A stretch of DNA of 63,859 nt, the filler included, from Reclinomonas americana ATCC 50394 (Eukaryota): the NCBI GenBank assembly GCA_048213135.1. It is 4 parts of 2 records of this genome, joined end to end, with 100 filler letters (N's around TTAATTAATTAA, not from the genome) between each part and the next. Parts side by side here need not be neighbours in the genome. Positions count along the whole stretch, not along the records: positions 51,891 to 62,724 come from PS015020.1; 3 more parts are not named here. One strand, given 5' to 3'. This document shows positions 6,877-63,006 of the stretch, in pieces; the first letter of the stretch is position 1, and each line of letters starts with the position of its first letter. The notes under the pieces are model-generated. The model did no database searches and was not told the DNA's origin. It was given only the letters and a program-made list of their open reading frames with translations. A program made the position numbers and the translations under genes.

Positions 6877-11134
<4,258 letters not shown>

Positions 11135-19919: not shown

Positions 19920-20556
19920 TGCGATAGAGAGACTTTGAGAAAGTCGACGTCGGACAACCGGACACGGTCTCTCGTACGTTGTTAAAAGACAGCTGTGTTA
20001 CGGGCGCACGTGAGTGCTCACGCGCTTATTGCACTGTTATTTCCTACTACTCTGCGTCGACTCCATCCCGACGCGATGCTGAAGCGTCCGACTCGGTAAC
20101 TGCGACGTCGATATCAACGATAAGAACGCGCGCGCAGTATTTTCCCGCCTTCACTTTCTATGCAGCGGCCTCGTTCACACCGTGCTCTGTGTTTGACTGA
20201 CGACGCGTATAAGTCTCGCGCAAGAAACGTCGCAGTGTGCATGACACAGACCAATGCAATTGTTGAGGACCGAGTAAGTTTATTTTTCTGTGGTGAGCAT
20301 TGACCACGCTACATCGATATCAGTGTGTGTGCGCGTATGTGCATGTGTAGCCTTTCCACGCGCGTATGCGCAACTCTGTTTTCTGGCTTACTGCCTTTGC
20401 TGGCTTCCCACTTTCCTTTTTCGTTCGTGCGCGTCTGCGCACACTCCAGCCCTCCTCCTCCTCTTCCTCCTCCTCTCACACACGCAGCACATTGTTTGCG
20501 TCACGAGCAAGCATCTGACCTCGCCTTGCCCGCGCAGTGGAAGAAGCAACAAGCAA

Positions 20557-20655
20557 ATGTCGGGTCGATGTGGCCTGGTGTGCGCATATGCATGCCTTGC
20601 TGCTCTGTTGGTGTTGTCTGTGCTGTACAACACAGCAGATGCAGCAGCCGGTGAG

Positions 20656-20714
<59 letters not shown>

Positions 20715-23700
20715 GCAAGTTTTGTTCTCACAAACTTTCGTTCGATGTGTGTTCCGCGCGCCCTGCACGACACTCTCTTCTTCGCTCTCATTCTCTCTGT
20801 CTCTGCACGGCGCTACGTCGCTGTTTTTGTTCTTGATCTTGCACACAGAATGAGAGACCGCACAACTCATTTTTTTCGCGCGCAAATTTCTCTTGTCTCT
20901 CCACAGTCGTCATGTCTCCAAGCAACATCTCCATCAAGGCCGGCACCGCTGGCCAGATCGTTGACATCAATGTGACTGGCTCGGCCATTGCCTGGTCAAC
21001 TGCCTCCACCGCCACACTCTTCCTCGACCGCGCGTGCACTGGCACATCGCCGACCACCGTCATCAACTCCAGCACCATCTCTGCTGCCTCGCTCACCTTT
21101 AATGCGTCGGGTGATGGCAATGGTGGTGAGCGCTATCTGTGCATCGACGTGGACGGTGCGGGCGCGGCCACGCGCAACGAGTTTGTGGCCACGGTGTTTG
21201 TCTGTTGCGTCTCCATCGCTCTCCCCTTGCCTGTGCCTCCTCCAACTGACTCCATGCTCCTTCCTTTCCCGTCGCGCAGACACCCTTGGTTCGCAGAACA
21301 AGTCGCCGCAGCTGGTCAATGGTCTCGCCGACTTTCGCGTGACGGTGACTGGCCAGCACTTTGCAAATCGCCAGCTGGGTGCCGGTGGCTTGTTTGGCCT
21401 GTACTCGGCCGCAGACTGCAGCGGGTCGGCGGCACCAAATTCGAGCGTCACTCTGCAGACCAGCGATCCTTCTGGCTTCTACGCTCTGTTCTCGGTTGCC
21501 ACTGGCGCGTCATTCACACAGGGCGCCCTGGGTGTGACGGCCGCCGGCTCGTGCTCGTTGGTCACGCCGGGCGTGTACTATCTGTGTGGCAAGTTGCGTT
21601 GATGTGCGGGAGAGAGAAAGAAAGAGCGGCACAGATTGCATTCTGTGTTATGCCGACCTCTGCATGCTTGTCACCTCTGTCAACGTGCTTGCGGACGGCG
21701 TGAGTGCCGGTCATCATCTGCTGAGCGCACCTCTCTTCTCTCTCTCGCCTTTCTCCCTTCTCTCTCCATCATCTCCCCTCTCTCACCCTTCCGCTTCGCC
21801 AGGTTCCAGGCCGGTGGCACCGCCGTGTATCGCCTGCAACCCCTCCCGCTCATCGTGACTGCCGCCTCGTCGACGCCTGTGGTTTCCTTTGCCAATCCGC
21901 CCGTGCTCAAGTACGGCAGCGCCAACGCGATTGTGATCGGCTCCTCGGCCTTCAATCTCACCGACTGCACGAGCTTCAAGTTGGTACCGGCCGGCGCTGA
22001 TTGTGCCACACTGTCGGACTACTCGACGCTGACGGGCAGTGTGGGTGCGGTGTTTGTGCGTGGTGGCGCCGAGACGTGTCAGTTCGCGACTGGCTGCAGC
22101 GTGTTCCGCGCGACCATCACGCCGAACGGATCGAGTGGCGGCGGTGCCTACAAGCTGTGTGTGGCGGCCAACAACGGACCATACGTGTCGGCGGAGGAGT
22201 CGTTCACCTCCGGCTTCATGACGGCCGGTGGCCTTAGTGCGGGCGGCCCGACGCCGACATCGACTCCACTCCCCGCTGACGACATCGACAGCAGCCCTGC
22301 CACCCCGAAGCCGAGCTTGTCAACGTTGGCGGTGACGGCAACCACGATCCAGTTCACGTTTGCTCGCGAGTTCTACCGCCGCCCGCGCGTGTTGCTCGGC
22401 TTTGCTAGTGTTGGTCGTCAGGGCGCCGCTGGCCCGATCTCCACCCTGGCCAACGAGCCGGCTGACGGCACTTTCGCGTTCTGCGCGGAGCCGGAGGTGA
22501 CGGTGGCGCAAGTGTCGACTCGATGCCATGGCGTGTCGACGGACGGCCAGCCGGGACCTACCATCACACTGAGTTGCGTTCGCCGGAGCTGTGCGATGGA
22601 AAGAAGTGTGACTAATCGTGGTCCCGCCGCTTTGTTGCATGTGCAGGCTACCTGGCGTACTATGTGCATCAGACGAATGCTTTGTCGATGGATGGTCAGC
22701 GCACGCTGACTAGCGCAGCGTGGACATCGGATGTGGTGAACAAGAACAGCTCAACTGTTGCGTGTTTTGTTTGTACCCTCCTACCTGCGCCTACCCCTCA
22801 ATATTCTTACTTCCTGTCTTTTACTTGACCACAGTTGGTGAGCGTGTCATCTACGTACCAGTTTGCGTCGGTGCCAGCCGTTCCAGTGGCCGTCATTGGT
22901 GTGCTGTCGATGCGCCAGTCGGCTGCCGGCAATGATGGGCGCGTGCGCGGCGACAACTTTTCGGTGACAAGCAGCTCAGCCTCGCGCTCGAGTTTCGTGC
23001 TCAAGGGCACGGTGAGCGGCGACTCGCGCATCGAGGCAGTGTCTGCACGCTTTGCTGTGGCACCGGCGCGCCCCGACACCACCAACAACAGCGGATTTGT
23101 CATGCTGTCGGGAGGTGCATTCTCATCCTCTCCCCCTCAGCTGGAACGTTTTGTCTCTTTGTCTGACCCATGCGTGTGGTACAGAGACGACGCACACCAG
23201 CAGTGCGACAACGCAGACCGCCAGTCTGGTGACTTCGTCGACTCCCAATGGCCTTCTGCGTGCCACTATCAGCGTGCAGCTGTTCCTGCGTGGGTGGAAG
23301 TCGACGGCAGTCATTGTGCAGAACCGCATCGATCAGCAGTCGCTCCAGTTCACCACAAAGCGCCTCGGCAACGAGGACTATGTGACGGCAATCTCGTTCG
23401 GCGCCAGTGGGGCGGATGCGTCGGACGTTGAGTATGTGACGTGGTTGGCGATTGGTCGTGCGGCGCAGGGTGCACCGATATCGTGCCCTGCCGGCTACAG
23501 CGGCTCCAACTGCGGCGTGTGCACGCTGCCCGACGGTACCACAACGTGCTCACTGAACCGACGTGCGGTGCTGAGCTGTGCCTACGGCACCACTCAGATC
23601 ATCGCGCAGTGTGCCGAGGGTCGTGAGTGCTTTGAGGCTTATGGCGTGGCGCGGTGCGGATGCTCGGCTTTGGGTACTGTGTGCTCGAGTGGCGGCGACT

Positions 23701-26700
23701 GCTGCTCTGGCAGCTGTGATTCGGGTCTGTGCGTGTCATTGTGCAGCCCAACCACCACGTGCTCTGGCAACGGAACATGCAAGACTGACGGCACGTGTCA
23801 GTGCGATACCGACTATTACGGTGCATCGTGCAGTGTGAACTGTGTGGCCGGCACGACGTGCTCCGGCAATGGAACATGCAAGACTGACGGTACGTGCCAG
23901 TGCAACAACAACTACTTTGGTGCATCTTGCAATGTGAACTGTGTGGCCGGCACGACGTGTTCAGGCAATGGAACATGCAAGACTGACGGCACTTGCCTGT
24001 GCACTGGCGACTACACCAATGCCAGTTGTAATTGCAGTCCCACCACCACGTGCTCTGGCCACGGAACGTGCAAGGCTGACGGTACGTGTCTGTGCACTGG
24101 CGACTACACCAATGCCAGCTGCAACTGCAGTCCCACTGCCACGTGTTCTGGCCACGGAACGTGCAAGACTGACGGCACGTGTCTGTGCACGGACGACTAC
24201 ACCAATGCCAGCTGCAATTGCAGTCCCACTGCAACGTGCTCTGGCAACGGAACGTGCAAGGCTGACGGTACGTGCCAGTGCAACAACAACTACTTTGGTT
24301 TCTCTTGCAATGTGAATTGTGTGGCCGGCACCACATGCTCGGGAAATGGAACGTGCAACAGTGACGGTACGTGTCTGTGCACGGGCGACTACACCAATGC
24401 CAGCTGCAACTGCAGTCCCACTGCCACGTGCTCCAGCCACGGTGCATGCAAGACTGACGGCACATGCCAGTGCACTGACGACTACACCAATGCCAGCTGC
24501 AACTGCAGTCCCACTGCCACATGCTCCAGTCACGGAACGTGCAAGACTGACGGCACATGCCAGTGCACGGGCGACTACACCAACGCCAACTGCAACTGCA
24601 GTCCCACCACTACGTGCTCTGGCAACGGAACATGCAAGGCTGACGGTACGTGCCAGTGCAACAACAACTACTTTGGTGCCTCGTGCAACGTCAACTGTGT
24701 GGCGGCGACGACGTGCTCTGGCAATGGAACGTGCAAGGCTGACGGTACGTGCCAGTGCAACAACAACTACNNNNNNNNNNNNNNNNNNNNNNNNNNNNNN
24801 NNNNNNNNNNNNNNNNNNNNNNNNNNNNNNNNNNNNNNNNNNNNNNNNNNNNNNNNNNNNNNNNNNNNNNNNNNNGACTGACGGCACTTGCCTGTGCACT
24901 GGCGACTACACCAATGCCAGCTGCAACTGCAGTCCCAGCGTCACATGCTCTGGACACGGTGCATGCAAGACTGACGGTACATGCCAGTGCACGGGCGACT
25001 ACACCAATGCCAGCTGCAACTGCAGTCCTACTGCCACGTGCTCTGGACAAGGAACGTGCAAGACCGACGGCACGTGTCTGTGCACTGGCGACTACACCAA
25101 TGCCAGTTGCAACTGTAGTCCCACTGCCACGTGCTCTGGACACGGAACGTGCAACACCGATGGAACGTGCACTTGTACAAATCCTTGGAGTGGTAAGTAA
25201 TGCGACTGCTGTCGACCGTGAATTCGCTGCTGTTCAATGCTGACTTGTTCTCGCGAGCAGGGCCCGCTTGCTCAATCTGTTCTGGCGGTCCTATTGTTTC
25301 CCTCGGATACATTGGCAGCTGGGCAACCTTGGCCTCCAGCAGTGACGGCACCAAACTGGTGGCTATAGAGAGTAGCAGCGGTCAGATGTACACCTCCACT
25401 GATAGCGGTGCGACGTGGACAGCACGTGAGTCCAGTCGCAGTTGGAGTGGGGTGGCATCCAGCAGTGACGGCACCAAATTGGTGGCTGTGGTGCTTAGTG
25501 GCCAAATCTACACCTCTACTGACTCGGGCGTGACGTGGACGGCTCGCGAGTCCGATCGCTTCTGGATTTCGGTGGCCTCCAGCAGTGACGGCAGCAATCT
25601 CGTCGCGGTTGCTCAGGGAGACAAGATTTACACCTCCACGGACTCCGGCGCAACGTGGATGCCTCGTGAATCCAATCGCGTTTGGCAATCAGTGGCCTCC
25701 AGCAGCGATGGCACCAAACTGGTGGCTGTGGTGCTCAACGGGCAGATCTACACCTCTGCCGACTCTGGCGTAACATGGACAGCTCGTGAGACCAATCGCG
25801 GTTGGCAATCAGTGGCCTCTAGCAGTGACGGCACCAAATTGGTGGCTGTTGCAGGTGGAGATAAGATTTACACTTCGACCGACTCTGGTGCAAACTGGAC
25901 AGCTCGTGATTCCAGTCGCTCCTGGTGGTCAGTCACCTCCAGCAGTGACGGAACCAAATTGGCGGCTGTGGTGCTTGGTGGTCAGATTTACACTTCCACT
26001 GACTCTGGTGTTACATGGACGCCTCGTGATTCCACTCGTGACTGGCTATCAGTAACCTCCAACAGTGACGGCACCAAGTTGGTGGCTGGGATTCGCCCCG
26101 GGCAGATGTACGTCTCCACTGACTCTGGCGTGACGTGGACTGGATTGACTTCCCAGGGACTCCATGGGAAGAGTACCTGGCAGGCAGTGGCCTCCAGCAG
26201 TGACGGCACGAAGCTTGTGGCTGTGGTGAAATTCGGGCAGATCCACACATCTGCAGATTCTGGTGTGACGTGGACTGCTCGTGAATCCGCGCGGAGTTGG
26301 CAATCAGTGGCCTCCAGCAGTGACGGCACCAAATTAGTTGCTGCTGTATCCAACGGTCAGCTTTTTACGTCCACGGACTCTGGCGTAACATGGACGGCTC
26401 GTAATTCCAGTCGCCTCTGGACCGCAGTGGCCTCCAGCAGCGACGGCACCAAGCTGGCGGCAGTGGTACAATTCGACAAGTTGTATACGTCCACTGACTC
26501 TGGTTTGACATGGACGCCTCGTGGATCCAGTCGCAATTGGACTGCAGTGGCCTCCAGTAGTGACGGAACCAAGCTAGTGGCTGTAGCAAGCTCTGATCAG
26601 ATCTACACCTCCACTGACTCGGGCGTGACATTGACTGCTCGTGATTCCAGTCGTAACTGGACTGCAGTGGCCGCCAGCAGCGATGGCACCAAGCTGGTGG

Positions 26701-28361
26701 CTGTTGAGCTGTTTGGCCAGATCTACACTTCCACTAACTCGGGTGTGACGTGGACGCCTCGTGATTCCAGTCGCGGCTGGACTGCAGTGGCCTCCAGCAG
26801 TGACGGCACCAAGCTGGCGGCTGTGGCGAACAACGATCAACTGTATATCTCTCCTGACTCTGGTGTGACGTGGACACCTCGCGATTCCACTCGTGGGTGG
26901 AATTCGGTGGCTTGCAGCAGTGACGGTACCAAGTTGGTGGCTGCTGCGGATCAGGTGTACGTTTTCTCATGTATTCCTAGCTGCAGTCCGACGACCACCT
27001 GTTCGGGTAATGGAACGTGCCAGAGTGACGGCACTTGTCTGTGCGATACCGACTATTACGGTACGTCTTGCAGCGTGAACTGTGTGGCGGGCACGACCTG
27101 CTCTGGTCACGGCACGTGCAAGAGCGACGGCACTTGTCTGTGCGATACCGACTATTACGGTGCGTCGTGCAGCGTGAATTGTGTGGCGGCCACCACCTGC
27201 TCCGGTCACGGAACGTGCCAGACTGACGGCACGTGTCTGTGCACTGGCGACTACACCAATGCCAGTTGCAACTGCAGTCCCACCATTACATGTTCGGCTC
27301 GTGGCACTTGCGACTCTTCTGGAACGTGCACGTGCACAAGTCCATGGAGTGGTAAGTGATGCAGTTGTACATTTTTTGTTGTTATATGTATTTGCTGCAC
27401 ATTCCTTCTAATTTGCGATTCGCAAATAGGGCCGTCGTGTTCAACATGCTCCGCAAGTCCCATTGTTGCTCTTGGATACGTTGGCAGCTGGAAGGCAGTG
27501 GCCTCCAGCACTGACGGCACCAAGTTGGTTGCTGCGGTGGACGGTGGCCAGCTTTACACCTCCACCGATTCTGGAGCGACTTGGACGGCTCGCGAATCCA
27601 ATCGTGAATGGACGTCGGTGGCCTCCAGCAGTGATGGCACCAAGCTCGTGGCTGGTGTACTTAATGGCCGAATCTACACCTCTACGGACTCTGGTGTGAC
27701 GTGGACTGCCCGTGATTCCGGTCGTTTCTGGAATGCAGTGGCCTCCAGCAGTGACGGTAGCAAGCTGGTGGCTGGTGTACTTAATGGCCGAATATACACC
27801 TCCACTGACTCTGGCGCGACGTGGACGGCCCGTGCGACGGATTCCAATCGCCTGTGGCGATCTGTGGCCTCCAGTAGCGACGGCACTAAGCTGGTGGCTG
27901 TTGCAGCCAGCAATCAAATCTACACCTCCACTGACTCTGGTGTGACGTGGACTGCGCGTGAATCCAGTCGAACCTGGGTTGGTGTGGCCTCCAGTAGTGA
28001 CGGCTCTATGCTTGCTGCAGTGGTGAACGGTGGTCAGATTTACACCTCCACCGACTCCGGTGTTACTTGGACTGCTCGTGAATCCAATCGCGCCTGGAGT
28101 GGAGTTTCCTCGAGCAGCGACGGTACCCAGCTGGTGGCGGTGGTGAACGGTGGCCAGATTTTCACCTCCACTAATTCTGGTGCGAACTGGACAGCTCGTG
28201 ACTCCGCTCGCCTCTGGATTTCAGTGGTCTCTGCTGGTGATGGCACCCAGCTCGTGGCTGTTGTTGACAATGGTCAGATGTATATCTCGACCAATTCTGG
28301 CGTGGTGTGGACTGCAGTTGGCGCAAACCAAGGGCTGCAGTTGGCCAGTTCCTGGCGGTCT
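20557..28361 (+). CDS. Large secreted/surface protein: signal peptide, putative H-type-lectin-like domains, EGF/tenascin-like Cys repeats and Asp-box (BNR) beta-propeller arrays; 3' end lost in gap
   Basis: Signal peptide MSGRCGLVCAYACLAALLVLSVLYNTADA. Motifs IQFTFAREFYRRPRVLLGF...LSYLAY and VTWLAIG resemble H-lectin domains. Repeats CSPTTTCSGNGTCKTDGTCxC at 23740-25190 and 26980-27350; repeats WxSVASSSDGTKLVA..GQIYTSTDSGVTW at 25318-26960 and 27488-28361. Confidence 0.85.
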
Positions 28362-28521
28362 NNNNNNNNNNNNNNNNNNNNNNNNNNNNNNNNNNNNNNN
28401 NNNNNNNNNNNNNNNNNNNNNNNNNNNNNNNNNNNNNNNNNNNNNNNNNNNNNNNNNNNNNNNNNNNNNNNNNNNNNNNNNNNNNNNNNNNNNNNNNNNN
28501 NNNNNNNNNNNNNNNNNNNNN

Positions 28522-28951: not shown

Positions 28952-28995
28952 NNNNNNNNNNNNNNNNNNNNNNNNNNNNNNNNNNNNNNNNNNNN

Positions 28996-29007
28996 TTAAT
29001 TAATTAA
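28996..29007. other. Artificial contig-join spacer TTAATTAATTAA
   Basis: Palindromic six-frame stop 12-mer centred in a roughly 100-nt N block; identical copies at 51835 and 62769. Confidence 0.95.
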
Positions 29008-29083
29008 NNNNNNNNNNNNNNNNNNNNNNNNNNNNNNNNNNNNNNNNNNNNTCTCTCACTCACTCACTCTCTCTCTCTCACAG

Positions 29084-38747: not shown

Positions 38748-41700
38748 ATGGCTGCCGCTGCACCGCCGTCGCCTTCGTTGCGCCGCTTCCTCTCTGTGTG
38801 CGAGAGTCTTTTCTCTCACGTGTTGATTGCAGTGGCGTCGTCGGTTCCTTGGAACCGACTTTGCGCGTTGTGAAAGCTTTGGCTGGACCTTGCACACACG
38901 CTCTACAAGCCATGCTGTCAAAAGTGTTACCGCCGTTCCTCGCTGATCATCACGCTGAAGTCGATCATTTGGCTGAGTGGGGCAAGAACACAGAAGCTCG
39001 AGACGCACGGTTTGTCATGTCTCGCAGACGCGCTCCTCCGCACTTGCACCCTGCACCTCTAACTTTGCGCGTTGATGCAGGACTAAGCTTGGCAATAGCG
39101 CACCAGCACGTTACGACAAGCAGCAGCAGACTGTGCAAGAGTGGTGCGCTGAATTTGGACCTGCACCGTATGCAAGTTCCGACTTCAGCAAGTTTGATGT
39201 CACTCTGTGTGCCTCTATCTTGGAATACGCCATTCACAATGACGGCGGAGTGCGTCATCGTATAATACCCGAATCCGTGGTGAATAGGAATGTTGTCTGT
39301 GTGTGTGCGCGCGCTATTTCTCCGCACTCAGTGTCGTGTCTCGCCAGAGCGATGTTGTCAGGCGTTTGCGTGAGATCCGGAATGCCATGAGTCACGCACA
39401 GTTGACAGTCGCCGACATGCATGAGCTGCTTGGCAGCGGGGCTGTTGGCGGCACCTCGGAGGGCAAGTTACACAAACACATACGCGGTCTGCAACTCGAT
39501 CCGGCAATTGTCGCTGAGTTGCTGCGACAGCTGGATGAGGCGCGCGATGGTTCGTGAGCGCACTTGGCATACTGTTGTGTTTCTGAGAGCGGAATTTCAT
39601 CCGCCTTGTTGCAGGTGTGCTCCATCCCGACATGGTTGCGGACCTTCTCGCGAAAGTGAGTTTGCTTTTGGCTTTCTCTCGTGCACTGTGCGTGCTAGCT
39701 GACATTCAACTGTAACATGGCCTGGCGGTTCAGTGGCTGGTAATGTTCGAACAGGTACGTTTCCTTCCTTTGGAAGTGCAACAGACAGTCAAAGTGTGCT
39801 CAGGCACGCATTTAATTTCTCACTTTGTCGCTCATGCACCCTCACTTTGTATATTTCCATTGAGTGATTGTGCTTACTGTTTCTTGGGCGTGTTGTGTAG
39901 ATTCGGGATGACGTTGATGTTGTCAAAGAAGATATCGCGAGAATCAAATGCTTTATCCAACAGGTGCAAAAACAGTGTTTCACGCTCCGGTATTTGCTGA
40001 TCACTCAACGCTGGCTCCTGCGCAGATTCTGAGCCAGATGGAGACGCGACGAACTGATGTGCCAGCCGCATCGAGCGCAGGTTTGGATCCAGCGCTGAAG
40101 TGTTGAGGTGCCAGAATTCGTATTTCTGATCACTTTTGCAGCCGCTGGCTCGCCTCTCTCCTCGTCCGGTATGCCAGAGTCGCCGATCTCTTCTCCCAGT
40201 TCCCCCCTCGGCATCGTCGCCAGCAACATTGGCCAAGTGAAGACGTTTCGCTTTCCGAGCCGCGAGGTTCTCGCCAAGGAGCACGCCAAATACGTACTTG
40301 AGCACATGCGTGGTGAGTGCTTGTGATATTCTGTCCGAGTCCTTAGCTACGTTGGTGCGCTGAATGCCTCTCTTCTCTCCGCTTACAGATAATAGTCCCA
40401 CGCCAATCGTTGTCGTCATCTCGGGCAACGGCGGTTGTGGCAAGTCGTTCCTGGCCCAGCTCATTGTCGCGGAAATGAAGGCATCATCAGTCGCAAAACC
40501 GCGCTGGAGGGGCTCAACAATGTCAGTAGACATGCGCGGTCACGTTGCCGATACGCAGAAGCACATGCAGGTGTGTGTGTACGCGCTTGTACCTGGTTCA
40601 TTACTGCCGTGGTTCACACTATTTTAGGCCCTGGATTCGCTGGTGACGTGCCTGCGCGTGTTTGCCACCAAGCAGGCGGATGCAGATCCCGCCAGTGCCA
40701 ACCGTTTGGAGCAAGAAATCGACTTTATGGTCAGGGCTGGCGCAGTTGACCCGCTTAGACGTCGTTTGCGGCAGCTGATGGTTGATTCGTGCGGCGTCCT
40801 TCTCCTTGACAACGTCGGCACCGAAGCGCAAGTGTGCTCCGTTGTGATGGACCCATCAGGTTAGTGGATTTGTTGTCAGGTGCTTTTTTTCTCAAGTCAT
40901 ACCGTAATACAGAGTACTTACCAGCCTCTCCTGCTGCAGAAGAGGAAGTGGTCGCGCCAGTGGTGATTTTAACGACGCGACATGCGTGGCTTTCCCGTGT
41001 CTTGACGAATAGGATGTCAAAGGCGGCCGGGATCATATCCCTGCCTCTCAGTGCCAAGGTGGAGGACAGCGACGTCAGCGATCTCGCCGAGTCTGTGCGC
41101 GAATACTTTCCAATGGAAGTGGTGCTGTTCGGTCGCATTGTCGAAGCGTTGAAGAGCACCGAGCGAAGTCCACTGCTACTGAACGCTTGTGTTGGGTGAG
41201 TGCGTGCTATGTCTGGGTGGTTGCATGTCATTCTGTCCTGCTTGAGTGCGCACTGTCGCCGTCCAGCGGTCGCAGCGCATACTATCTTTGTTGGCAAACT
41301 CAAATGGCGATTGGGAACATACAAGATTAACGCCTTGTGACATTACGCGTTCTCTGTCTGTATTCTGATCGCTCGTGTTCTCCTCTCACTCTCGCAAAAT
41401 TGACTCTCTTTGCTCGATGCCAGTTTCATATGCTGCCTCCCAGTCCGTTGCTTTTTCTTCTCGGCCTGTCTACCGCAACCCCTCACTGTCTCATTCTGAT
41501 ATTCCCCCACTCGCTCCCTCCTGTCTAGACTCTCTTCGCCTTCCTCCGCATCATACGCCGACAAACGATTGTCTTATTGCTCTCTTGTGTCTTGCCTACT
41601 AGAGCCCATTTCTTCCTACTATCTCTCGCATTCTGTCTCTCACAGTGACTTCTCCCTTGACAGCTGGCTGCTGAAATGTGAGGCCGCCCAGTTTATCGGC

Positions 41701-43578
41701 AGAGAATTGGAAAGCACGCTGGAGAGCATTCAGCATGCTGCACTGGCGCAACACTTGGCGTACAACGTCATGTCACAGACTTCACCGGCGCGGCAGCTCC
41801 TGGTTCTGATTACAGCGTGCAAGCAACTCGGTATCAGTGTCACGCCAGCTTTCGTACGGTTGGCACTCGGCGCTGTTGGCTCATTTCCAGATGTTGAGGT
41901 GGTTGGTGATGCCAATGTTACGATCAGTGCAGCTGCTGCTGAAGCGCCGTTTGGACAGTCGGTTGAGTGCGTGTTAGAGTGGAAGGACCAAGCAGAGGCG
42001 ATTGCTGATCGCTTACTGGACCTCAGCGAGCATGTGCGTCGTCTGTCACTGCACGACATGGCGCGTGAACGGCGCAGGAGGGCGCCGGATGTCGTTGGTG
42101 ACGAATTGCAGTTTGACGAGCTTACCGACGATGCGGAGGCAGGCGTCCGTGTGCGAATTGCGACGCTGATCCGTGCGGGTGATTACAGTGACACTGATCG
42201 CTTGTTGATTGCACTGTGTCGCACGAATCTGGCCACGACGGCAGATTCTGACAGAAGGGACGTAATGGCTCAAGTGCTCTGTCTGGATGACGATCGGGTA
42301 CAGAATTGCATGACAGAATACCGTCTGCATGACGACTACGCTGACTGGATATCGGCAGCTGGTGGTGGTATGGCCGTGTCATGTGCGAGGAGTCTTATCA
42401 TCTACCTCGTGTGTTGCACGTTGACGAGTATCGACATTGTGAATGACAGCGCCAACGTGCTGTTGGTGTCTCGCAACATGCAAGGCGTAGTTCGCACTCT
42501 CTGGCAGCAGCTGGCCGTCGATGATTCTTTGTGGGTCGGCCGTCAGTCAGTGCTGCTTCTGTTCGGTGCAGTGGAGTGGATCGCACGACAGTTTGCTGTG
42601 TCGCGACTTCCGGCACGTGATTTTGATAAGCGTTGTGGGAGGACATTAGCCGAACGAGTGACTGTGTGGGACTCGTCAGCCGTGCCGAAGGACAGTGCAC
42701 TGGGTCGCCGAATGCGGATTGCACAGCAACGTTGCTTGGCTCAACTCTGCCATTTGTTGAACGACGGAAACATGCAGATGGATGCAATACAGCAGACGAG
42801 TGATCATTATGCAATCGACGACGACCATGTGCAGTGTGCCTACGTACATCGAGAACTCCGTCAGCTTGATGCATTCCGCTGTGGCATGTGGTGCGAGCTG
42901 GCGAAGAGGGACAAGGATCGCCTGCTTGAATGCTGGTTGACACAACGTAAGACACTTGGCGAGCACCATCCGGATACGATTCGCACACTCTCGGCTCGTG
43001 CACAAGTCTGTGAAGAGATTGGCGACCAGGCAGGGGCAGAGCTGCTGTACAGGAGTTGCCGGCGGGCAAGGAAAAGGGTCCTCGGCGATGACCATGCCGA
43101 CACGATCATGTCTATGTATAAGAGGGCCTACTGTATCCAAGGTGCAACCCGTCGGAAGGAAAAGATACGTCTGTACAGGAAGTGCTTGGTTGCTAGAGAG
43201 CGCACCCTGGGTCAGCAGCATCCGGAGACGTTGCAATCTATGACCAACCTCGCCTGGGAGTTGATGAAGCTCGATGTGCCGCGGCTCCACGAGGCCAGAG
43301 GCCTGCTCAGCGAGGCCAGAGACCTGTTCTTTTTTTGTCTGAACGCACGCCTTGAGGTTCTCGGCGAGCTGCACGAGCAGACACTCAATGCTAGGGTCAA
43401 TTATGCGACTTGTCTGCAGAGGCTTGGTGGCGATGATCTTCCGGAAGCCGAAAATCAGCTGCTCAAATGCCTGAGCGGCTGTGGGATCCCGCCGACAACT
43501 GAGACTTTGCACGTCGCACAAGAGGCCAATGATGTCTATCTGAAGTTGTGGCTCCTAGACATGCCAGAGACCGAATGA
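38748..43578 (+). CDS. NLR-like STAND protein paralog 1: putative HEPN domain, helical linker, NB-ARC-type NTPase, C-terminal TPRs
   Basis: FSKFDVTLCASIL...VRRLREIRNAMSH (Rx4H); Walker A VVISGNGGCGKSFLA; Walker B VLLLDNV; sensor VVILTTR; RSPLLL; kinesin-light-chain-like TPRs LGEHHPDT, LGDDHADT, LGQQHPETLQSMTNLA; about 13 exons. Confidence 0.85.
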
Positions 43579-46165: not shown

Positions 46166-48756
46166 TGTGTGTGTAAACGCGTGTGGAGTAAGTACCTGGT
46201 CAGCTTGATGTCTGATACTCGCGCACGACAAGGCCCTGGATTCGTTGGTGACTTGCCTGCGCGCATTCGCCTCCAAGCAAATGGTGAACGATGTCACAAG
46301 TGCCAACCGTCTGGAGCGTGAGATCGACTCGATGGTCAGGGATGGTAATATTGACTCCCTGAGACATCGGTTGCGGAAACTGATGGTGGATTCGTGCGGC
46401 GTATTGCTTCTTGACAATGTCGGCTCTGTTGAACAAGTTTGCTCCGTGACCATGGATCCGTTGGGTTAGTTGATCTGGTTCTTGGTACTGTTCCGTCCCC
46501 TCATGAAGAGTGCTTACGGAAACTCTCGTATTGCAGAAGAGGAAATGGTCGCACCAGTGGTGATTGTCACGACGCGACATGCGTGGCTTCCCGAAGACCT
46601 GACGTACCGCGTGTCAGTGGCGGCCGAGGTCATGTCAGTCTCCTTGGTTGCCGAGGTGGATGTCGGCGATGTCATCGTTCTTGCCGAATCGGCACGCAGA
46701 AAGCTGCCTATGACTCCGGAAGTATTCGGTCGTGTTGCCGAGGCGTTGAAGAGCACCGAGCGCAGTCCACTTCTACTTAACGCTTGCGTCGGGTACACTC
46801 GCGTCCTGTAGTTTCCTGTCTACTACCCCGCCATCTTACCTTTCCTGATTCCTCGCCAGTTGGCTGTTGAGATGCCCGCCGGCCCAGTTCATCGGCAGGG
46901 AGCTGGATGTCACGCTGGACAACATTCGCAGAGCTGCTGTGGCCGAACACCTCAAGTACAACATCATGTCACAGACGCCACCGGCACGGCAGCTCTTGGT
47001 GCTGATCACAGCGTGCAAGCAGCTCGGCATCAGTGTCACGCCAGCATTTGTGCGGCTCGCACTCGGCACTGTCGGTATCTTTCCAGACATTGAGTTGGCT
47101 GGTGGTGTCCATGGTGCGGTCAGCGCAGCTGCTGGTGCGGCATCTGCACAGCTAGTGGTGTGTGAGCGGCTATGTGATGACCATCACGCTGAGACGATTG
47201 CCGGTCGTCTGCTGGAGCTCAGCGAGCTCGTGCATCGAGTGTCACTGCATGAGATGGCGCTAGAGCGGCGTCAGAGAGCACCGGATGTCATTGGTGACGA
47301 GTTGCAGTTCGAGGAACTCACCGACGAGGCGGTGGCCGCAATGCGGCGGCGAATTGCGACGCTGAACTGTGCAGGCGATTACGGTGCAATCGATGACCTG
47401 CTGGTGGCACTGTGTCACACGAATCTGGCCACGATGGCCCGTTCAAACAGCAGAGATGTCATGGCACAAATGCTGCGTCTGGGAGACGAGCGGGTACAAA
47501 ATTGTGGTACCGATTATCGCCTGCATGACGAGTACGTCGAATGGATAACGGCGGCTGGTGGCGGTGTGGCCGTGTCCCGTGCCAAGCGCTTGATTGTCTC
47601 CCTCGTGTGTTGCACGCTGTTATGTATCGACATTGTGAACGACAGCAGCAGAGTGCTGCTGGTGTCGCGCGGCATGTCCGATGTGCTCAGCACTCTGTGG
47701 CAGCATCTGGCCGACGATGACGCGCTCTGGGTCGGTCAGCAGTCACTGTTGCTGGTGTGGGGTGCGGTGGAGTGGATGTCGCGACAGCTCGCAGTTTTGC
47801 GGCTACCTGCCCGTGGATTTGACAAGGATCATGGGAGGCGATTGGCTGAACGAGTGATGGGATGGGACGCCACGTCTGTGCCGGAGAACAGTGCGCTCGG
47901 GCGTCGCATGCGAATCGCGCAGCAGCAGTCCTTGGCGCAGCTGTGGTTCTTCTTGGACCAATTGGAGGACAGGAAAGGGGCGTGGCAGCGCGCGAGAGAA
48001 CTGTACGCCATCGTTGACGAACACAGTCGCTACCGGTGCGATGTGCTGCAGCGGATCGACGCGCTGCGGTGCGGCATGTGGCACGAATTTGCCAAGCTCG
48101 ACCACGACGGCATGCAGCGGTGTTGGGAAGAGCAATGCGCAGCTCTTGGCGAGTACCACCCTGAGACTGTTCGCACGCTGTTCTCCCATGCGCAGACCTA
48201 CGAAAAGGTCAACAAGTTTGTCGAAGCTGAGGCCCTGCATCGAAGATGTCTGGAGTACCGACAGCTGGTGCTCGGCGATGATCACGGCGATACTCTCACC
48301 TCCATCCTCAACGTGGCCTTTTGCATCCAGGCCCTTGAACGACTGGTGGAGAAGGTGGACATGTACCGTCGTTGCGTGGATGGACGGCGGAGCACTCTCG
48401 GTATCGAGCACCCGGAGACGTTGACGGCCACGAATAACCTGGCATGGAATCTCATGAAGCTGGCTACGGACGCGGCCCGCAACGAGGCGTGCAGTCTGCT
48501 GCTCGAGTGCCTCAATACGCGACGACGACTCCTGGGCGACCGGCACGAACGAACGCTCAACACCATGTTCATCTACGCCTCGACGCTGATGGATACGGGC
48601 GACGAGCGGCTACCAGAGTCGAAAACACTGCTGGAGGAGTGTCTGGAGGGCTGTTTGAAGGTGCACGGAGAAGATCACGAGAACACGACGGAGGCCAGAC
48701 GATGTTTGGAGGAGTGTCGGCAGAAGATGCAACAGAGGGAGAAGGGTGAGGAGTGA
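43722..48756 (+). CDS. NLR-like STAND protein paralog 2 (same architecture)
   Basis: Same MAAAAP start and shared intron positions; FRMFDATLCISIL...IEELRDWRNKVHELH; GNGGCGKS; LLLDNV; VVIVTTR; RSPLLL; TPRs LGEYHPET, LGDDHGDT, LGIEHPETLTATNNLA, HGEDHENT. Confidence 0.85.
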
Positions 48757-50565: not shown

Positions 50566-51834
50566 GATGGGATGAGTGGAGAAAGATGCAAGTTGCATTA
50601 TAGTTGGCAGCACGCACTCTCGCGTTCTGCGGGTTGAATATAGTTACCTGTAAGCGTGCGATACATTGTGGGTCACGTGAAGGAGCACAGGCCCGTGTCG
50701 AGGACTCACTTGCTGTTGCCTCTCCTGTGTGAAGGGTTAACAGTTGGTGAATGATGCTTATGGATGCAGCGTTGAAGGAGCACGGGTTCCGGTCGAGGGT
50801 GCTCATTATGTTGCTTGTTTCTGCAACTGTGGAGGGTTAACGTCGAGATTGTAGTGGTGAATAGCCTTGGGCAGTGTCTCATGGATACAGCGTTGAAGGG
50901 GTGTGTGTTCGGATCAATTGTGTTGTGGTGAAGGGCCAAGGTCGAGATTGCTGAGGTGAAGAATTTTTGTTTGCTGTCTCATGCATACAGCGATGAACGG
51001 GCACGGGTCTGAATCAAGCGTTCTGGTTGCTTCTTTCTGCAGCTGTGAAGGGTCAAGTTCACGACTGTGTTGTGACGAGCCTTGGATTCCGTTTCATGGA
51101 TGCAACTTTGATGGAGCGCGGGCTCGGGTGTAGGGTGCTCATCTCGTTGCTTCTTCAGCGATGCTGAAGGGCCAAGGTCGGGATTGCTAAGGTAAAGAGC
51201 CTTTAGTGCCGTTTCGTGGACGCATGTTTGAAGGTTCAAGGGTCACGGTTAACACTGCGGGGAATTCGACGAATGCGCAACACCAGCACTTTATTCCTTC
51301 TGGGATCTGGTCGTGTATGGCTATGGTAATGCAGCTAAGATGTCGTCGCCACCGCTGCTGCTGCTGCTCTCGCTTCTGTTGCTGGTGTTGTTGTGCTGTA
51401 GTTGCTGCGCTGCTTGCTTCAGTTGTTGTTGCTGTTACGGATGCCTCTCCTTCTGCAGTCAGGCAGTTGTTGTTGTTGTCGTCATCGTAAGCTCCTGCTC
51501 TCCCTTTGCCAATTGCGTTAGTGGTGTCGTTGCTGCTGCTTCGGATACTGATCCTTCTGCAGTCAGGCAGTTGTTATTATCGAAGTCGTTGCTTCTCTTG
51601 CTGCTCTTGCTGCAGCTATTGTTATTGTTCCTGCAACATGCTGGTGTTGTTGTTGTACACGTCGCAGTTCAGTTGCTGCTGCTTTGCTATTTGCATTAGT
51701 CGTGTCGTTGCTGCTGCAAAGGGTGCTGCTCCTGCTGCAGTGTGCTCCTGGCAGTTATTGTCATCGAGTCGTTCGATTCCTTCTAGAATTNNNNNNNNNN
51801 NNNNNNNNNNNNNNNNNNNNNNNNNNNNNNNNNN

Positions 51835-51846
51835 TTAATTAATTAA
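51835..51846. other. Artificial contig-join spacer TTAATTAATTAA
   Basis: Same 12-mer within an N block. Confidence 0.95.
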
Positions 51847-52000
51847 NNNNNNNNNNNNNNNNNNNNNNNNNNNNNNNNNNNNNNNNNNNNTACCCGTACC
51901 CCGTCCCCGTCCGTCCGTACGTAGGTTGGTTTGGTTCGGTCGGTCGGTAGTAGTCGACTTTACTTTCGTTTCGTTTCGTTTCTTCGTCTACTACGTAGTC

Positions 52001-58194: not shown

Positions 58195-61100
58195 TCAGCG
58201 TGCGGAGATGCGTACGGTGAGTTGCTTGCCGTGGTCGCCGGATGGGTTTTTGTGCGTGATCAGAATGTGGTTCTGTGATGATGAAATCGGTGAGTTTTGG
58301 ATGCGAAAGTCAAGGTGGCGTCGCGGCGAACCTCGGTGTGCGAGTAGGATGCGGAGACGTCGCTGGGCGAGAGTTCGACAAAGTAGCCGGTGGGGTAGTG
58401 CATCAGCTGTGCGCGTGGAGAGGTGAGGCGAATGAAAACGGCATTGTTGTTGTTCGCACGACGACAAACCTCGTTGATGTAAATATCCGTCTGAGCCTTG
58501 GAGACTGAGAAGGGGAGTGAGAAACGGTGCGATGCATTTGCGTAGGTTGTGGAGAGGACTTACTGTCGCGGTCAATCACGTAGGTGATCTGCGAAAGGTG
58601 GATGAGAAGCAGCAACGGCAAAGACACACGCAGTGTATTTCTCACCGAAAAACGTGCCGTGTCGGGATCGAAGGCCATGGCTACGATGCTGGAGCCGGCG
58701 GTTGCTTGTGCGTACGTGCGACTGAGAATACGCACCTGCAGGTGCAGGTACACACGGCAGTGAGCATGGCGGCACGCATTTCCCCACTCCGGGAAAGTCA
58801 CAAACCTTGTCGACGTCGAGATCTGCGGGGAACCGGGAAGTGAGACGAATGCGAAACAAAGTACACGGATCAACATGAAAAACAAACCTCCATTGTCCAA
58901 GTACAGACTCTCGTCCGAGGCCGACGACTGCGTGGTAAAGTCGTTCCAGCTCTGCATGCACACGTTAGATGGTGACAATCTCGATAAACCCGACGTGAGT
59001 CGATCACCTTCCAGGCCCTGTGTTCGTCGGTCAGCAAACAACATGCCTGGCATCTCAACAGCAACAGCAGCCACAACTCACCAGTACGACCAGCTGACTT
59101 GGTAGAGATCCGCGAGGTCTGCATCGAGGAGAATGCATCATGATGAGTGGGTGCACCACAGAGAGCGAGAATGCGATTAACACACCGAGAAGGTCCTTCA
59201 TCATCTGCAGGCCCTTGGGCGAGTCTGGATTCGCGCCCCACTCCGTCATCATGCTCGGCACTCCGTACCGCTTGGCCTCTGCGCGCACACGCCACGTCAT
59301 TCCCTCAAGAACGCACAGGAGAAGAATGGCGCACGTGCAGAACGTACCGAGAACGCGTGTCTCAAAGAAGAGCTCCAGCGTCGTGTCGCAAATGATACGC
59401 ACAGATGGATCGCCGTGGCGGTCCGTGGCCTGCACGAAGCGAAAGGGTCAGCACACAAGCATACAGGACAACATCCACGTCGCTGTACGAAACGCAGTAA
59501 TTGTGCCTGTGTCGCCGAGAAAGTCAGCAACGACACGCTCGCAAACAGGGGGAAACACAACGTACCAGCTGAAGACACTGTTGTTGCCTCCGGGGGCGGT
59601 TTCAAAGCCAAGTGGGTACAGATCAGGCAACATGGGCTCTGGCCCGCAAATGGTGAGCGACCAGGATAGAGTACTGATGCTGCGAAAAAGAGAGGGAGCG
59701 CACCCCAGAAAATCATGCGGTTGGGGTCGGCCTCGCGAATGGCCGGCACGAGCACATCATAAAAGGGGATCTGCAAGCGCGTGATGAGTGGAGGACGAGT
59801 GTTGGAGAGCGGACGAAGCTGCGAACCAAGTTCTTCTTGTCGGCATGCTTGGCCTGTGTCGGGAGGAAAATGTCAGCAGAGTGCAGAGAGCGCACCAATA
59901 AATTTGCAAGTGGCACCCACCTCATACAGCAGCTTGGGGTCGGTGAAAATGTCACCGGGCCACTGCAACGGAGAGAGAGAACATAAGTGAGGGAGTGGGA
60001 GCGATCACACTCCAACGGTGACAAACTGGGGATAAAGGGAGTGAGTTGCAGCGCGGAAAGAGGGCGAGAACAACGACAAGCGACGTACCCGGCTCATTCA
60101 ACAGCTCCTGCAGGCGATAGGCGACAGACACAAGTGAGTCAGCACAACGAGTAACGCAATAAGAAGCATGTGGGTGCGCCTCACGATTCCAATCACGTCG
60201 GTGTCGCCGACAAAACTCGCAGCAATCGCCTGCGTGGGTACGAGAGGCGCGTGAGCAACAAGCCATGTGTGCCAGCTTGGCAAACAAAGCAAGCCAACCT
60301 TCCAAAAGTTGGCAAACAACGGCGCCTGCTCGTGGTACAATCGCTCAAATGCGTCGCCCTGCGCCACCAAAAGCAGTGAGCTCGCCGGCAAGCAGGTGAG
60401 ACTCAGGCAGGGACAAGCACGACGCAACCACAGCGTACGTCAGGTAAAATCTGCGACGGGGGAAAAGTCAGCAAAAATGCGGGTTGTGAAGCAAGGCAGA
60501 CGAATGCACGCAACTCTGCAAACACATGCTTCAAGCAATCCTCCAGCAGCGGGTGGCCCTGCGAGTCGAAGCGCAGGTGCGAGTCCACAGGGTCGCCGAA
60601 CGGATGAGTGCCTGTGCGCGGGATGGGTGAGATAGGGAGAGGTGAATGATGGCGATCGACATGCTCACCATTGTACTGCGCCGCCCAGTCGGGAATGCCC
60701 TCGCCGCAGTACTTGCGCGACAGCAAGTCTGATCCGCACACGACTTTGTCAACAACAATCACAGGAAAGGACGGCCAACCAACTGCACCTTGATGCGCAT
60801 CCAGCAGCGTGTGCACGCCGCGCGAGGCCAGCAGGTCGACCATGCGATGCAGCACATTGACGTACGTCTGATTGAACTGGCCTTGCACGGGCTCGTATCC
60901 CATCCACGCGGCGTAGAGGCGGACTGTGCAAGAAAGGGGAAGCGAAAGGTGAGGAGAGAGATAGAAGGTCGAAGGTCGCTTAGAGGAGTCCAATAATGGA
61001 GAGGCCAGATCGCGCGGACGAGGGATGTATAGATACGAGAAGAAGAGAAACCACGAGAAGAATCAAAGAGGAGATGGCGAGAAGAATGACGACGGACGCG

Positions 61101-61512
61101 GCCGGAACGAGAGCAACACCAAGGACGAGATCGAGAGGATGCGAAATAACGAGCGTTTGCTCGATGGTTGAGAGGTTGAGTGCAGGCACCAAAGCCGACG
61201 AGAAGGAGAGAGAGAGACGAGAGACGATACAGAAGCGCAGCATACAGACTTGCAAACAGACTGAGCACGTGGAAGTGATGAGGGGGCTTCATGCATTCTC
61301 TTCCCCTTCTCTTCTCTCACAGTCTCTTCTCTGCCTTTCTCATCCTCTATTTATCTCTCGTTCTCTCTCTGTCTCTCGCACTCACTCACACACCAGTCTC
61401 TTCTCACTCACTCGCAGCAGTCTCTTCTCTTCTTCTTCTTCTTCTCTCTCTCTCTCTCCCTCCCTCTCTTTCTCGCCTTCTCTCTCACGGTCGCTCAGTC
61501 TGTTCTCCATTC

Positions 61513-61555
<43 letters not shown>

Positions 61556-61856
61556 NNNNNNNNNNNNNNNNNNNNNNNNNNNNNNNNNNNNNNNNNNNNN
61601 NNNNNNNNNNNNNNNNNNNNNNNNNNNNNNNNNNNNNNNNNNNNNNNNNNNNNNNNNNNNNNNNNNNNNNNNNNNNNNNNNNNNNNNNNNNNNNNNNNNN
61701 NNNNNNNNNNNNNNNNNNNNNNNNNNNNNNNNNNNNNNNNNNNNNNNNNNNNNNNNNNNNNNNNNNNNNNNNNNNNNNNNNNNNNNNNNNNNNNNNNNNN
61801 NNNNNNNNNNNNNNNNNNNNNNNNNNNNNNNNNNNNNNNNNNNNNNNNNNNNNNNN

Positions 61857-61893
<37 letters not shown>

Positions 61894-62334
61894 CCCTGCT
61901 CCGTGCCCCGCCTCCTCTCCAACAAACCAAAGTTAAACCCCCACTGCTCCAAGTTATCCGCATCAAACGGAGTCAGCGAGGTCACCGGATCAAACGTGGT
62001 CAACGAAGGCGGATGATACGGAGGCGGCTTGTACCTAAAAAAATGATTGATTACAATGAATTACTCCGACAATGCACGCATGCACACATGAGAGAGAGAG
62101 AGAGAGAGATAACAACGCAACACTGCATTGACACCGTGAAAGATGCGAATGCGGCCTTGCTCGTCGACCATCTTCCCATCGCGAGTCTGTGTGTGTGTGT
62201 TTGTGTTTGAGCACTCTTTGTCTCTTCATCTCTTCACTCTCTCACACACTCACTGAGATGCGAGACAGCGTGTTGGCTGCCAGTGCCACGTGGCACACGA
62301 GCAGCACGAGGAGCAGCGCAAGAGCAATGCGCAT
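58195..62334 (-). CDS. Secreted glycoside hydrolase family 5, endoglycoceramidase-like
   Basis: Signal peptide MRIALALLLVLLVCHVALA; DEQGRIRIFHGVNAVYKPPPY; WGFNFVRL; LLDAHQDLLSRKYCGEGIPDW; acid/base ELLNEPWPGD; WHNYC; nucleophile MMTEWG; SWSYWAWK; SRTYAQATAG; about 26 exons. Confidence 0.92.
59963..60089 (-). other. Putative nested twin intron ([D1,2] stwintron-like): internal intron 60088-60026 interrupts the donor of an external intron (G at 60089 plus 60025-59963)
   Basis: AAT GAG CCG | G [GTACGT...CTCAC...CCCAG] TTTGT...CTCAC...TGCAG | TGG CCC GGT GAC. Confidence 0.7.
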
Positions 62335-62768
62335 TTTGCAAAGGCAGAGATTGTCAAGATTTGTCGTGTTTGTCGTGTTTGTTGTTGCATGTGGAGGCGA
62401 GTGACGCGAGGAGCTCAGTGGCGGCACATTGTGGTGTTGCTTGTGGTGGTGGTTGTTGTTGTTGTGTGTGTGCTGGTGGGTGTTGTTGTGGTGCAACGTG
62501 GTGGCGATGGGGAGGAGGATGCAGGTGAGAAGGATGAGAGGGTGATTAGGGGACTTGTCTTGCTCCTTCTTCTTGTTGTTGGTGATGATGATGATCATGC
62601 TCTCCTCCTGCCTCTCCTCCTCTTCCGTCTTCTTCTTCCTCTTGTTGTTGTTGTTGTTGTTGTTGTAATGGGCGTTGTTGCTGTCGCGCTCAGTGGTGGT
62701 TGCGGCTCACCACCACCAGTGATCNNNNNNNNNNNNNNNNNNNNNNNNNNNNNNNNNNNNNNNNNNNN

Positions 62769-62780
62769 TTAATTAATTAA
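62769..62780. other. Artificial contig-join spacer TTAATTAATTAA
   Basis: Same 12-mer within an N block. Confidence 0.95.
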
Positions 62781-63006
62781 NNNNNNNNNNNNNNNNNNNN
62801 NNNNNNNNNNNNNNNNNNNNNNNNTGTCACGACGCGCGTGCGTTCGTGCGTTCGTGTGTACGACAGCGTGTGTGTGTGTATAAGAGAGAGAGAGTGTGTG
62901 TGCATCAGTGTTGTGCACACGGTGAACCGGTGACTACCGGAAAAAAACCGCCAAACCACATTGTGTGTTGCGTTTGCGAGAGAAGAACAACAACAAAAAG
63001 GGAAGA

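Follow-up and report, generated by a model that had tools for sequence, protein, structure and literature searches.

Spliceosomal twin introns (stwintrons) of the [D1,2] kind are defined by a G directly before the 5'-most donor, a complete inner intron and an outer donor that is regenerated once the inner intron has been removed (PMC5587772). As far as the accessible text of the relevant papers goes, they belong to ascomycete fungi, where they were described by Flipphi, Fekete and co-workers (PMC5587772; PMC12403724; PMC9024468; PMC7138796), and a Lipomyces stwintron was termed in 2020 the first outside Pezizomycotina (PMC7138796). In the literature searched, with supplements and subscription papers outside its scope, the accessible text held no stwintron composed of two U2-type introns outside ascomycete fungi, and a wider search on twintrons added only organellar and U12 cases. 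Here we describe a 127-nucleotide (nt) interval within a GH5 endoglycoceramidase-like gene on the minus strand of a 63,859-nt stretch of DNA (assembly GCA_048213135.1; the whole stretch is called the window below), which we consider probably, if with only slightly more confidence than doubt, to be a nested intron of the [D1,2] stwintron kind that would be excised in two steps.

The interval shares with [D1,2] stwintrons an inner U2-type intron that separates nucleotide 1 of the outer donor from nucleotide 2, an outer intron with its own branch motif and acceptor, two units that are each of normal intron size for the host, and a T behind the inner AG that creates a competing contiguous GT. A G (G60089) stands before the 5'-most donor GTACGT, in agreement with the published 5'-G/GU arrangement (slashes mark splice boundaries throughout); the inner unit is a complete U2-type intron at the sequence level, with a score inside the leave-one-out range of the other introns of the gene; and the outer donor would be regenerated as GTTTGT at the head of a 64-nt intron with its own CTCAC element and TGCAG acceptor. 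Unlike the ascomycete examples, the candidate is known from genomic sequence alone and occurs in a host that is apparently no ascomycete and probably no fungus, and its inner unit is in frame and free of stops, so that splicing in the wrong order would yield a protein with an insertion, not a truncated protein. Unlike the stwintron families of the Hypoxylaceae, it shows no terminal symmetry and no notable fold, and the window contains no sister copies of it.

In long animal introns, splicing can be recursive at zero-length exons, or ratchet points, which read AG/GT. The candidate resembles them in its two consecutive steps and in the regeneration of a 5' splice site at the junction formed by the first step, but the regenerated donor of a ratchet point lies wholly downstream, whereas here the first G would come from the upstream exon, whose end would shift back one base. 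Behind the internal AG comes TTTGT rather than an immediate GT, with the donor G supplied by the exon end, and the intervals measure 63-64 nt, against kilobases in ratchet-point introns. Two further kinds of splicing are relevant: dual-specificity sites, in which an acceptor AG and a donor GT overlap, and exitrons, which are in-frame retained introns produced by alternative splicing within a coding exon. Likewise, G60026 belongs to both a candidate acceptor AG and a candidate donor GT, and the 63 nt of the inner unit are a multiple of three without a stop; exitrons, however, are parts of a coding exon, and these 63 nt have a non-coding look.

The interval between the ELLNEP and WPGD exons

The exons and introns of the host gene were set by hand and verified by translation. 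Its main body consists of 23 exons of 10-135 nt, separated by 21 short GT-AG introns and the 127-nt interval, and the joined coding sequence (CDS) of 1277 nt is open for 424 codons. The spliced model aligns end to end with the homologue P0007 (E-value 3.3e-117, 421 residues), NEPWPGDIF of the model pairing without a gap with NEPWLGDIY, and all junctions other than the interval are GT-AG and in frame; the gene is intact except at the NEP/WPGD junction. With a 198-residue read-through frame as query, a full HMMER search recovered 415 relatives at E-values up to 0.001, among which P0007 is the closest (52% identity across the matched stretches of this search fragment) and one cluster carries the source name endoglycosylceramidase. 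The fragment also matches endoglycoceramidases in PDB (6jyz_A, E-value 9.9e-06; 2osx_A, E-value 0.02), while the Pfam family PF00150 (GH5) scored 16 bits on the fragment alone, under its cut-off of 23.5. Homology to solved and annotated endoglycoceramidases thus extends over the catalytic domain (6jyz_A, P0007), and both catalytic glutamates are present, the acid/base in NEP and the nucleophile in TE[FW]G: ELLNEP and MMTEWG align with the invariant columns N243, E244, P245 and T363, E364, G366 of our alignment A1. The gene shares the motifs VRL..W..EP..G, LLDxHQD, NEP and TE[WF]G with GH5 endoglycoceramidases (PDB 6jyz, 5j14, 2osx) and aligns over its full length with metatranscriptome homologues, but differs from the former in being extraordinarily intron-dense, with 23 exons per 1277 nt of CDS.

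The interval begins GGTACGT directly behind the ELLNEP exon (Table 1), and G60089 forms part of a GGG run (60090-60088; the plus strand reads CCC at 60088-60090). When 60088-59963 is taken out as one GT-AG intron, the junction reads CCG GTG GCC CGG TGA and ends in a stop. The inner intron, which we call X, has its CTCAC at 60045-60041, 16 nt from the 3' end, followed by a pyrimidine run, CCCAG at 60030-60026 and then TTTGT at 60025-60021; the remainder of the outer intron, Y', has its own CTCAC at 59991-59987, 25 nt from the 3' end, and the acceptor TGCAG at 59967-59963. In the exon that follows, WPGDIFTDPKLLYE aligns gap-free to WLGDIYSDPMLLLK of P0007. This anatomy, from the ELLNEP exon and GGTACGT through both CTCAC elements, CCCAG, TTTGT and TGCAG to the stop, agrees base for base with the initial annotation of the locus. 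What that annotation had overlooked is that G60026 and TTTGT already form a contiguous GTTTGT donor, and therefore a plain canonical model exists: used directly, this donor defines a canonical 64-nt intron, Y (60026-59963), and leaves an in-frame insert of 21 residues. As canonical introns, X and Y overlap by one base.

In the two-step route that we favor, X (G/GTACGT ... CTCAC ... CCCAG/T) would be removed first, being transcribed first and carrying a G/GTACGT context like that of two other GTACGT introns. The resulting intermediate would join the CCGG end of the exon to TTTGTCACC, and G60089 would thereby meet TTTGT to give CCG/GTTTGT, a better -1 context than the genomic CCA/GTTTGT. The branch motif (59991-59987) and acceptor (59963) of the 64-nt outer intron would then serve its removal, and the Pro codon of NEP would be joined to the Trp codon of WPGD, restoring the conserved active-site sequence. 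The anatomy, the matching sizes and the ungapped NEP-W junction of the homologues are plain from the sequences; we infer that X acts as an intron, that it leaves ahead of Y and that splicing then uses the regenerated donor. Only the nested route is predicted to yield a homologue-like NEP-W junction; were Y spliced first, the acceptor AG of X would be destroyed, and therefore the 21-residue insert would stay.

Table 1. Features of the 127-nt interval and its host gene (positions along the window)
Feature	Position	Strand	Remarks
18-nt exon ELLNEP (GAG CTG TTG AAT GAG CCG)	60107-60090	-	carries the GH5 acid/base Glu
Pivotal G	60089	-	exonic for the inner intron; would become nt 1 of the outer donor
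Candidate inner intron X, 63 nt	60088-60026	-	donor GTACGT (60088-60083), CTCAC, acceptor CCCAG
Candidate remainder of outer intron, Y'	60025-59963	-	with G60089 a 64-nt intron, donor GTTTGT
Contiguous genomic donor GTTTGT	60026-60021	-	shares G60026 with the acceptor of X
Alternative donor GTGATC	60008-60003	-	after removal of X: 17-nt microexon 60025-60009, 46-nt intron, 6-residue insert
42-nt exon encoding WPGDIFTDPKLLYE	59962-59921	-	starts TGG CCC GGT GAC (WPGD)
MMTEWG exon	59278-59186	-	nucleophile Glu motif
GH5 endoglycoceramidase-like gene, main body	58195..60923	-	hand-built model, alignment with P0007
Stop codon of the GH5 endoglycoceramidase-like gene	58197-58195	-	
Upstream exons of the GH5-like gene (VDEQGRIRIFHGVNAV.., YKPP..WGFNF)	61929..62210	-	tblastn with P0007 residues 32-95, E-value 1.2e-09

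Splice signals, coding character and rival parses

The 21 short introns of the gene are 43-77 nt long (mean 63.1, standard deviation (SD) 7.3) and all end in CAG; CT[CG]AC lies 13-27 nt from the 3' end in 15 of them, and the donor is preceded at position -1 by G in 17 and by A in one. The interval's units, of 63 and 64 nt, are close to this mean, which bears out the initial annotation on their typical size, as it is also borne out on GTTTGT being a common donor: it is the commonest donor hexamer of the gene (3/21), with a fourth instance, read by eye, behind the upstream exon. GTACGT opens two other introns, each preceded by G, and GTGATC is the donor at one further place in the gene (59007). 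Strong donors in the rest of the window most often lie 60-80 nt from a CTSAC..CAG unit, with 32 such cases compared with 4 in the control. Scored with a model trained on the other 21 introns of the gene, which gave these introns leave-one-out values of 5.6-25.0 bits (median 17.0), X reaches 10.5 bits, Y with its genomic donor (A at -1) 16.3 bits, and the outer intron after removal of X 19.5 bits, the regenerated donor surpassing its genomic copy because G replaces A at -1. The 46-nt intron from GTGATC scores 10.6 bits, a single 126-nt intron 11.6 bits and a 127-nt GG-AG intron 3.0 bits as a whole, its GG donor contributing -3.4 bits. When routes were compared by path total (intron log-odds, less a 9-bit prior per intron, plus the coding score of any insert), the nested route obtained 12.0 and the best canonical parses 1.4-2.0; signal and coding scores favor the nested route by about 10 bits over canonical parses, before any prior for rarity.

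The 63 nt of X have a pyrimidine fraction of 0.73, compared with 0.30-0.63 in exons and 0.48-0.71 in introns, and a summed codon log-odds of -5.87, whereas 21-codon windows of the CDS never fall below 0.01 (median 7.1); their composition and their codon usage both look non-coding. That X is free of stops says little, because 43 of 63 intron reading frames are stop-free as well. Homologues lead in the same direction: NEP is followed directly by [WFYL]x[GAN] in 65 of the 72 homologues that extend at least 12 residues past NEP and at 59 of the 72 NEP sites in 80 related metagenome loci, and none of the 7 and 13 exceptions listed resembles the 21-residue insert. These 80 loci match contiguously, at 30-42% identity, and therefore give no intron comparison; metagenome contigs contained no exact match to the 42-nt exon. 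In the AlphaFold model of P0007 (predicted local distance difference test score 87.6), the strand formed by residues 236-243 ends at the NEP motif, and by this model an insert would come immediately after the catalytic Glu and its strand.

Several observations weigh against nested splicing. Y outscores X, and a Y-first order would keep the insert; X itself is weak, at about the fourth-lowest place relative to the leave-one-out scores, and the T behind its AG is a context found in only 1 of the 21 introns. Long open reading frames (ORFs) totaling 8982 nt contain 20 segments that reach 10.5 bits or more, and caution is due since the score model is small and trained on this same gene. When canonical parses that leave ELLNE.. 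and ..WPGDIFTDPKLLYE in a single frame were enumerated, there were 16, among them the single 64-nt intron with its stop-free 21-residue insert. A scan of the window, on both strands, for G/GT..AG/T twins with both units at 10 bits or more returned four twins, against three in the reversed-sequence control, so that the pattern is not enriched, and no second supported case was found in the window. Most of the 10-bit margin would vanish once the rarity of stwintrons was allowed for by a prior. Chance does not explain the placement, with the twin occupying exactly the space between two exons that homology supports, and after the rarity prior it is homology and composition that tip the balance to the nested route. 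The claim of two-step splicing is partly supported, in that the interval fits the [D1,2] definition, offers the sole route to NEP-W and leads by about 10 bits, while the wording that ELLNEP "must join" WPGD, and that the order is "obligatory", draws on homology alone; with 16 canonical GT-AG parses in frame, "must" holds only if the protein has to resemble its relatives, and "obligatory" was not sustained.

Further candidates were discarded. A twin at 11432-11316 (minus strand), considered as a second case, lies in low-complexity, non-coding sequence upstream of a kinase gene; the pattern (11316-11433, 59 + 59 nt, 12.9 and 14.3 bits) is probably due to chance, or may belong to a 5' untranslated region. 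An [A2,3] arrangement of the interval, a type described in PMC5587772, is impossible, as a T and not a G follows the last AG, and removal of Y first, followed by splicing of X to the next AG in exon 8, gives a stop when read by eye.

That the mRNA follows canonical rules throughout and carries extra residues in one form or another is, taking these forms together, unlikely on our estimate. In the simpler of them, to which we assign roughly half of that modest weight, an 81-nt exon (60107-60027) is followed by the single 64-nt intron 60026-59963, and the 21-residue insert GTSLVVVLALFPRCNSLPLSP stands behind NEP; the same estimate covers a variant in which the insert form dominates, Y leaving before X and X behaving like a retained in-frame intron. 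Such a model needs no unusual mechanism, uses a contiguous GTTTGT (60026-60021) that at 16.3 bits scores above X, and retains 63 nt that are a multiple of three without a stop, and an annotation pipeline working without RNA would probably choose it or something similar. Yet the retained piece has the highest pyrimidine fraction of the exon-sized pieces and a codon score below that of every 21-codon window of the CDS; it would place a hydrophobic insert directly past the catalytic strand, of a sort seen in none of the homologues, and all the signals of an intron are present in it, with conserved residues exactly at its borders. A shade less probable still are two canonical introns around a microexon, either X, 17 nt (60025-60009) and a 46-nt intron, adding the six residues VCHRWS, or introns of 49 and 54 nt around 9 nt, adding eight residues. 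Among canonical parses with two introns, the former has the highest summed log-odds (21.1 bits); the 9-nt version was picked by a gene-finder restricted to GT-AG, which reproduced 20 of the 23 exons of the hand-built model; and the gene does contain real microexons of 10, 17 and 18 nt, all backed by the alignment with P0007, and uses GTGATC as a donor at 59007. These parses nonetheless put six to eight extra residues where homologues have no gap, and they reach path totals of 1.8-2.0, where the nested route has 12.0. Once X is out, moreover, GTTTGT (19.5 bits, 64 nt) competes with GTGATC (10.6 bits, 46 nt) for the acceptor, and the branch A of the 46-nt intron is only 21 nt from its donor.

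An error of sequencing or assembly, in which one G of the GGG is spurious and the true structure is a single 126-nt GT-AG intron (CCG/GTACGT...TGCAG/TGG), appears to us improbable. The scaffold, a draft, contains 16 N runs, a simple gene model returns if a single base of a homopolymer is changed, and longer introns do exist, one of about 1 kb in the GH5-like gene and one of 227 nt, rich in (CT)n, in a kinase gene. On the other hand, all 41 exon homopolymer runs of at least 3 (14 of them of at least 4) are consistent with the frame, including the GGGG at the 59704 donor, and 126 nt lies more than 8 SD from the 21 short introns without any low-complexity expansion. Such an intron would also contain a complete branch motif and CAG at the modal distance from the donor, an acceptor whose use shifts the frame, and with GG in place of GGG neither unit-wise route restores the frame when read by eye. 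Least probable of all, and in our view very improbable, are a decaying gene copy with a real frameshift and the direct removal of 127 nt as a GG-AG intron, to which a single excision from GTACGT to the last AG, taken literally, lends some weight by ending in a stop. The rest of the gene is intact, however, with 424 codons, 21 junctions and catalytic NEP and TEWG all kept, and for a GG-AG intron the donor (-3.4 bits) and the whole (3.0 bits) score poorly and the gene has no other non-canonical intron. Weighed against these alternatives, ordered excision of X and then of the outer intron is the reading that we prefer.

Gene structure and window context

The upstream exons of the GH5-like gene are separated from its main body by an intron of about 1 kb (60924-61928, minus strand) that contains GA/CT microsatellites and an N gap at 61556-61856; its donor, GTTTGT, follows the exon end ..AACTTTG (..WGFNF), with frames assigned by eye. 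No relative was found with the 44-residue first exon as query. Introns occur in the gene at about one per 55 coding nt; neighboring genes have ORFs of up to 2 kb and few introns. The microexons of 10 nt (59017-59008, AWK) and 17 nt (58822-58806, DLDVDK) are backed by the P0007 alignment. The shortest intron (59430-59478, minus strand) can be read with two lengths, 43 nt from the donor GTTGTC and 49 nt from the donor GTGGAT; both versions are in frame, and the homologue alignment is gapped there. The next predicted gene on the minus strand starts with an ATG at 58115, about 80 nt past the stop of the GH5-like gene, a very compact spacing, and opens with an Asn/Asp-rich run.

With regard to the origin of the introns by introners or repeats, they are no more alike than shuffled controls (best local score 14, null maximum 15), and comparison of X and Y with the rest of the window gave no match beyond short (CT)n stretches. 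Neither the RNA fold of the interval (z -0.64) nor its termini, inspected for symmetry, offered anything notable. With a flat length prior the gene-finder over-predicts and merges genes, which makes it useless for a length distribution; among its 14 filtered introns, the long ones are errors or (CT)n-expanded. In a protein-kinase gene, a predicted 227-nt intron (9173-9399, minus strand) consists largely of (CT)n-like repeats, which suggests that microsatellite expansion is a way in which introns grow long in this genome.

The window encodes teneurin-type EGF, BNR, TPR_10/12, a papain-like C1 motif, a cN-II 5'-nucleotidase, a kinase, UCH and WD40. This gene content plausibly argues against a fungal host, in keeping with the initial annotation. 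One or more large genes with many teneurin-type EGF and BNR/Asp-box repeats occupy 20300-28400 (plus strand; ORFs 23016-24770 and 25197-27356), and two TPR_10/TPR_12 genes lie at 41500-43578 and 46849-48756. Rfam and tRNA searches gave no match. At 28952-29051, 51791-51890 and 62725-62824, two runs of exactly 44 N are separated by 12 bases, a paired pattern that may be an artefact of scaffolding or masking.

Implications of the proposed ordered excision

We would go one step further, though tentatively and with somewhat less than even confidence, and propose that the interval is a functional [D1,2] stwintron outside the Ascomycota, and probably outside fungi, in which the order of splicing would be a possible on/off switch. 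Because X is in frame and stop-free, splice order would choose between two forms, an active enzyme with the NEP-W junction and a form with 21 hydrophobic residues behind the catalytic Glu; the earlier idea that splicing gates the active-site exon is, at this point, speculation. The locus would at the same time be a natural snapshot of a new intron that has landed in the donor of an older one. If the nested reading is wrong, the interval would reduce to an ordinary ambiguity of annotation or a one-base assembly error. If it is verified, gene finders limited to canonical introns would be seen to insert spurious residues, as one did here by adding eight beside the active site, and strict intron definition together with ordered two-step excision would not be a fungal peculiarity; an unrelated, very intron-dense lineage would then provide a second system in which to study the gain of introns inside introns and one-base shifts of intron position.

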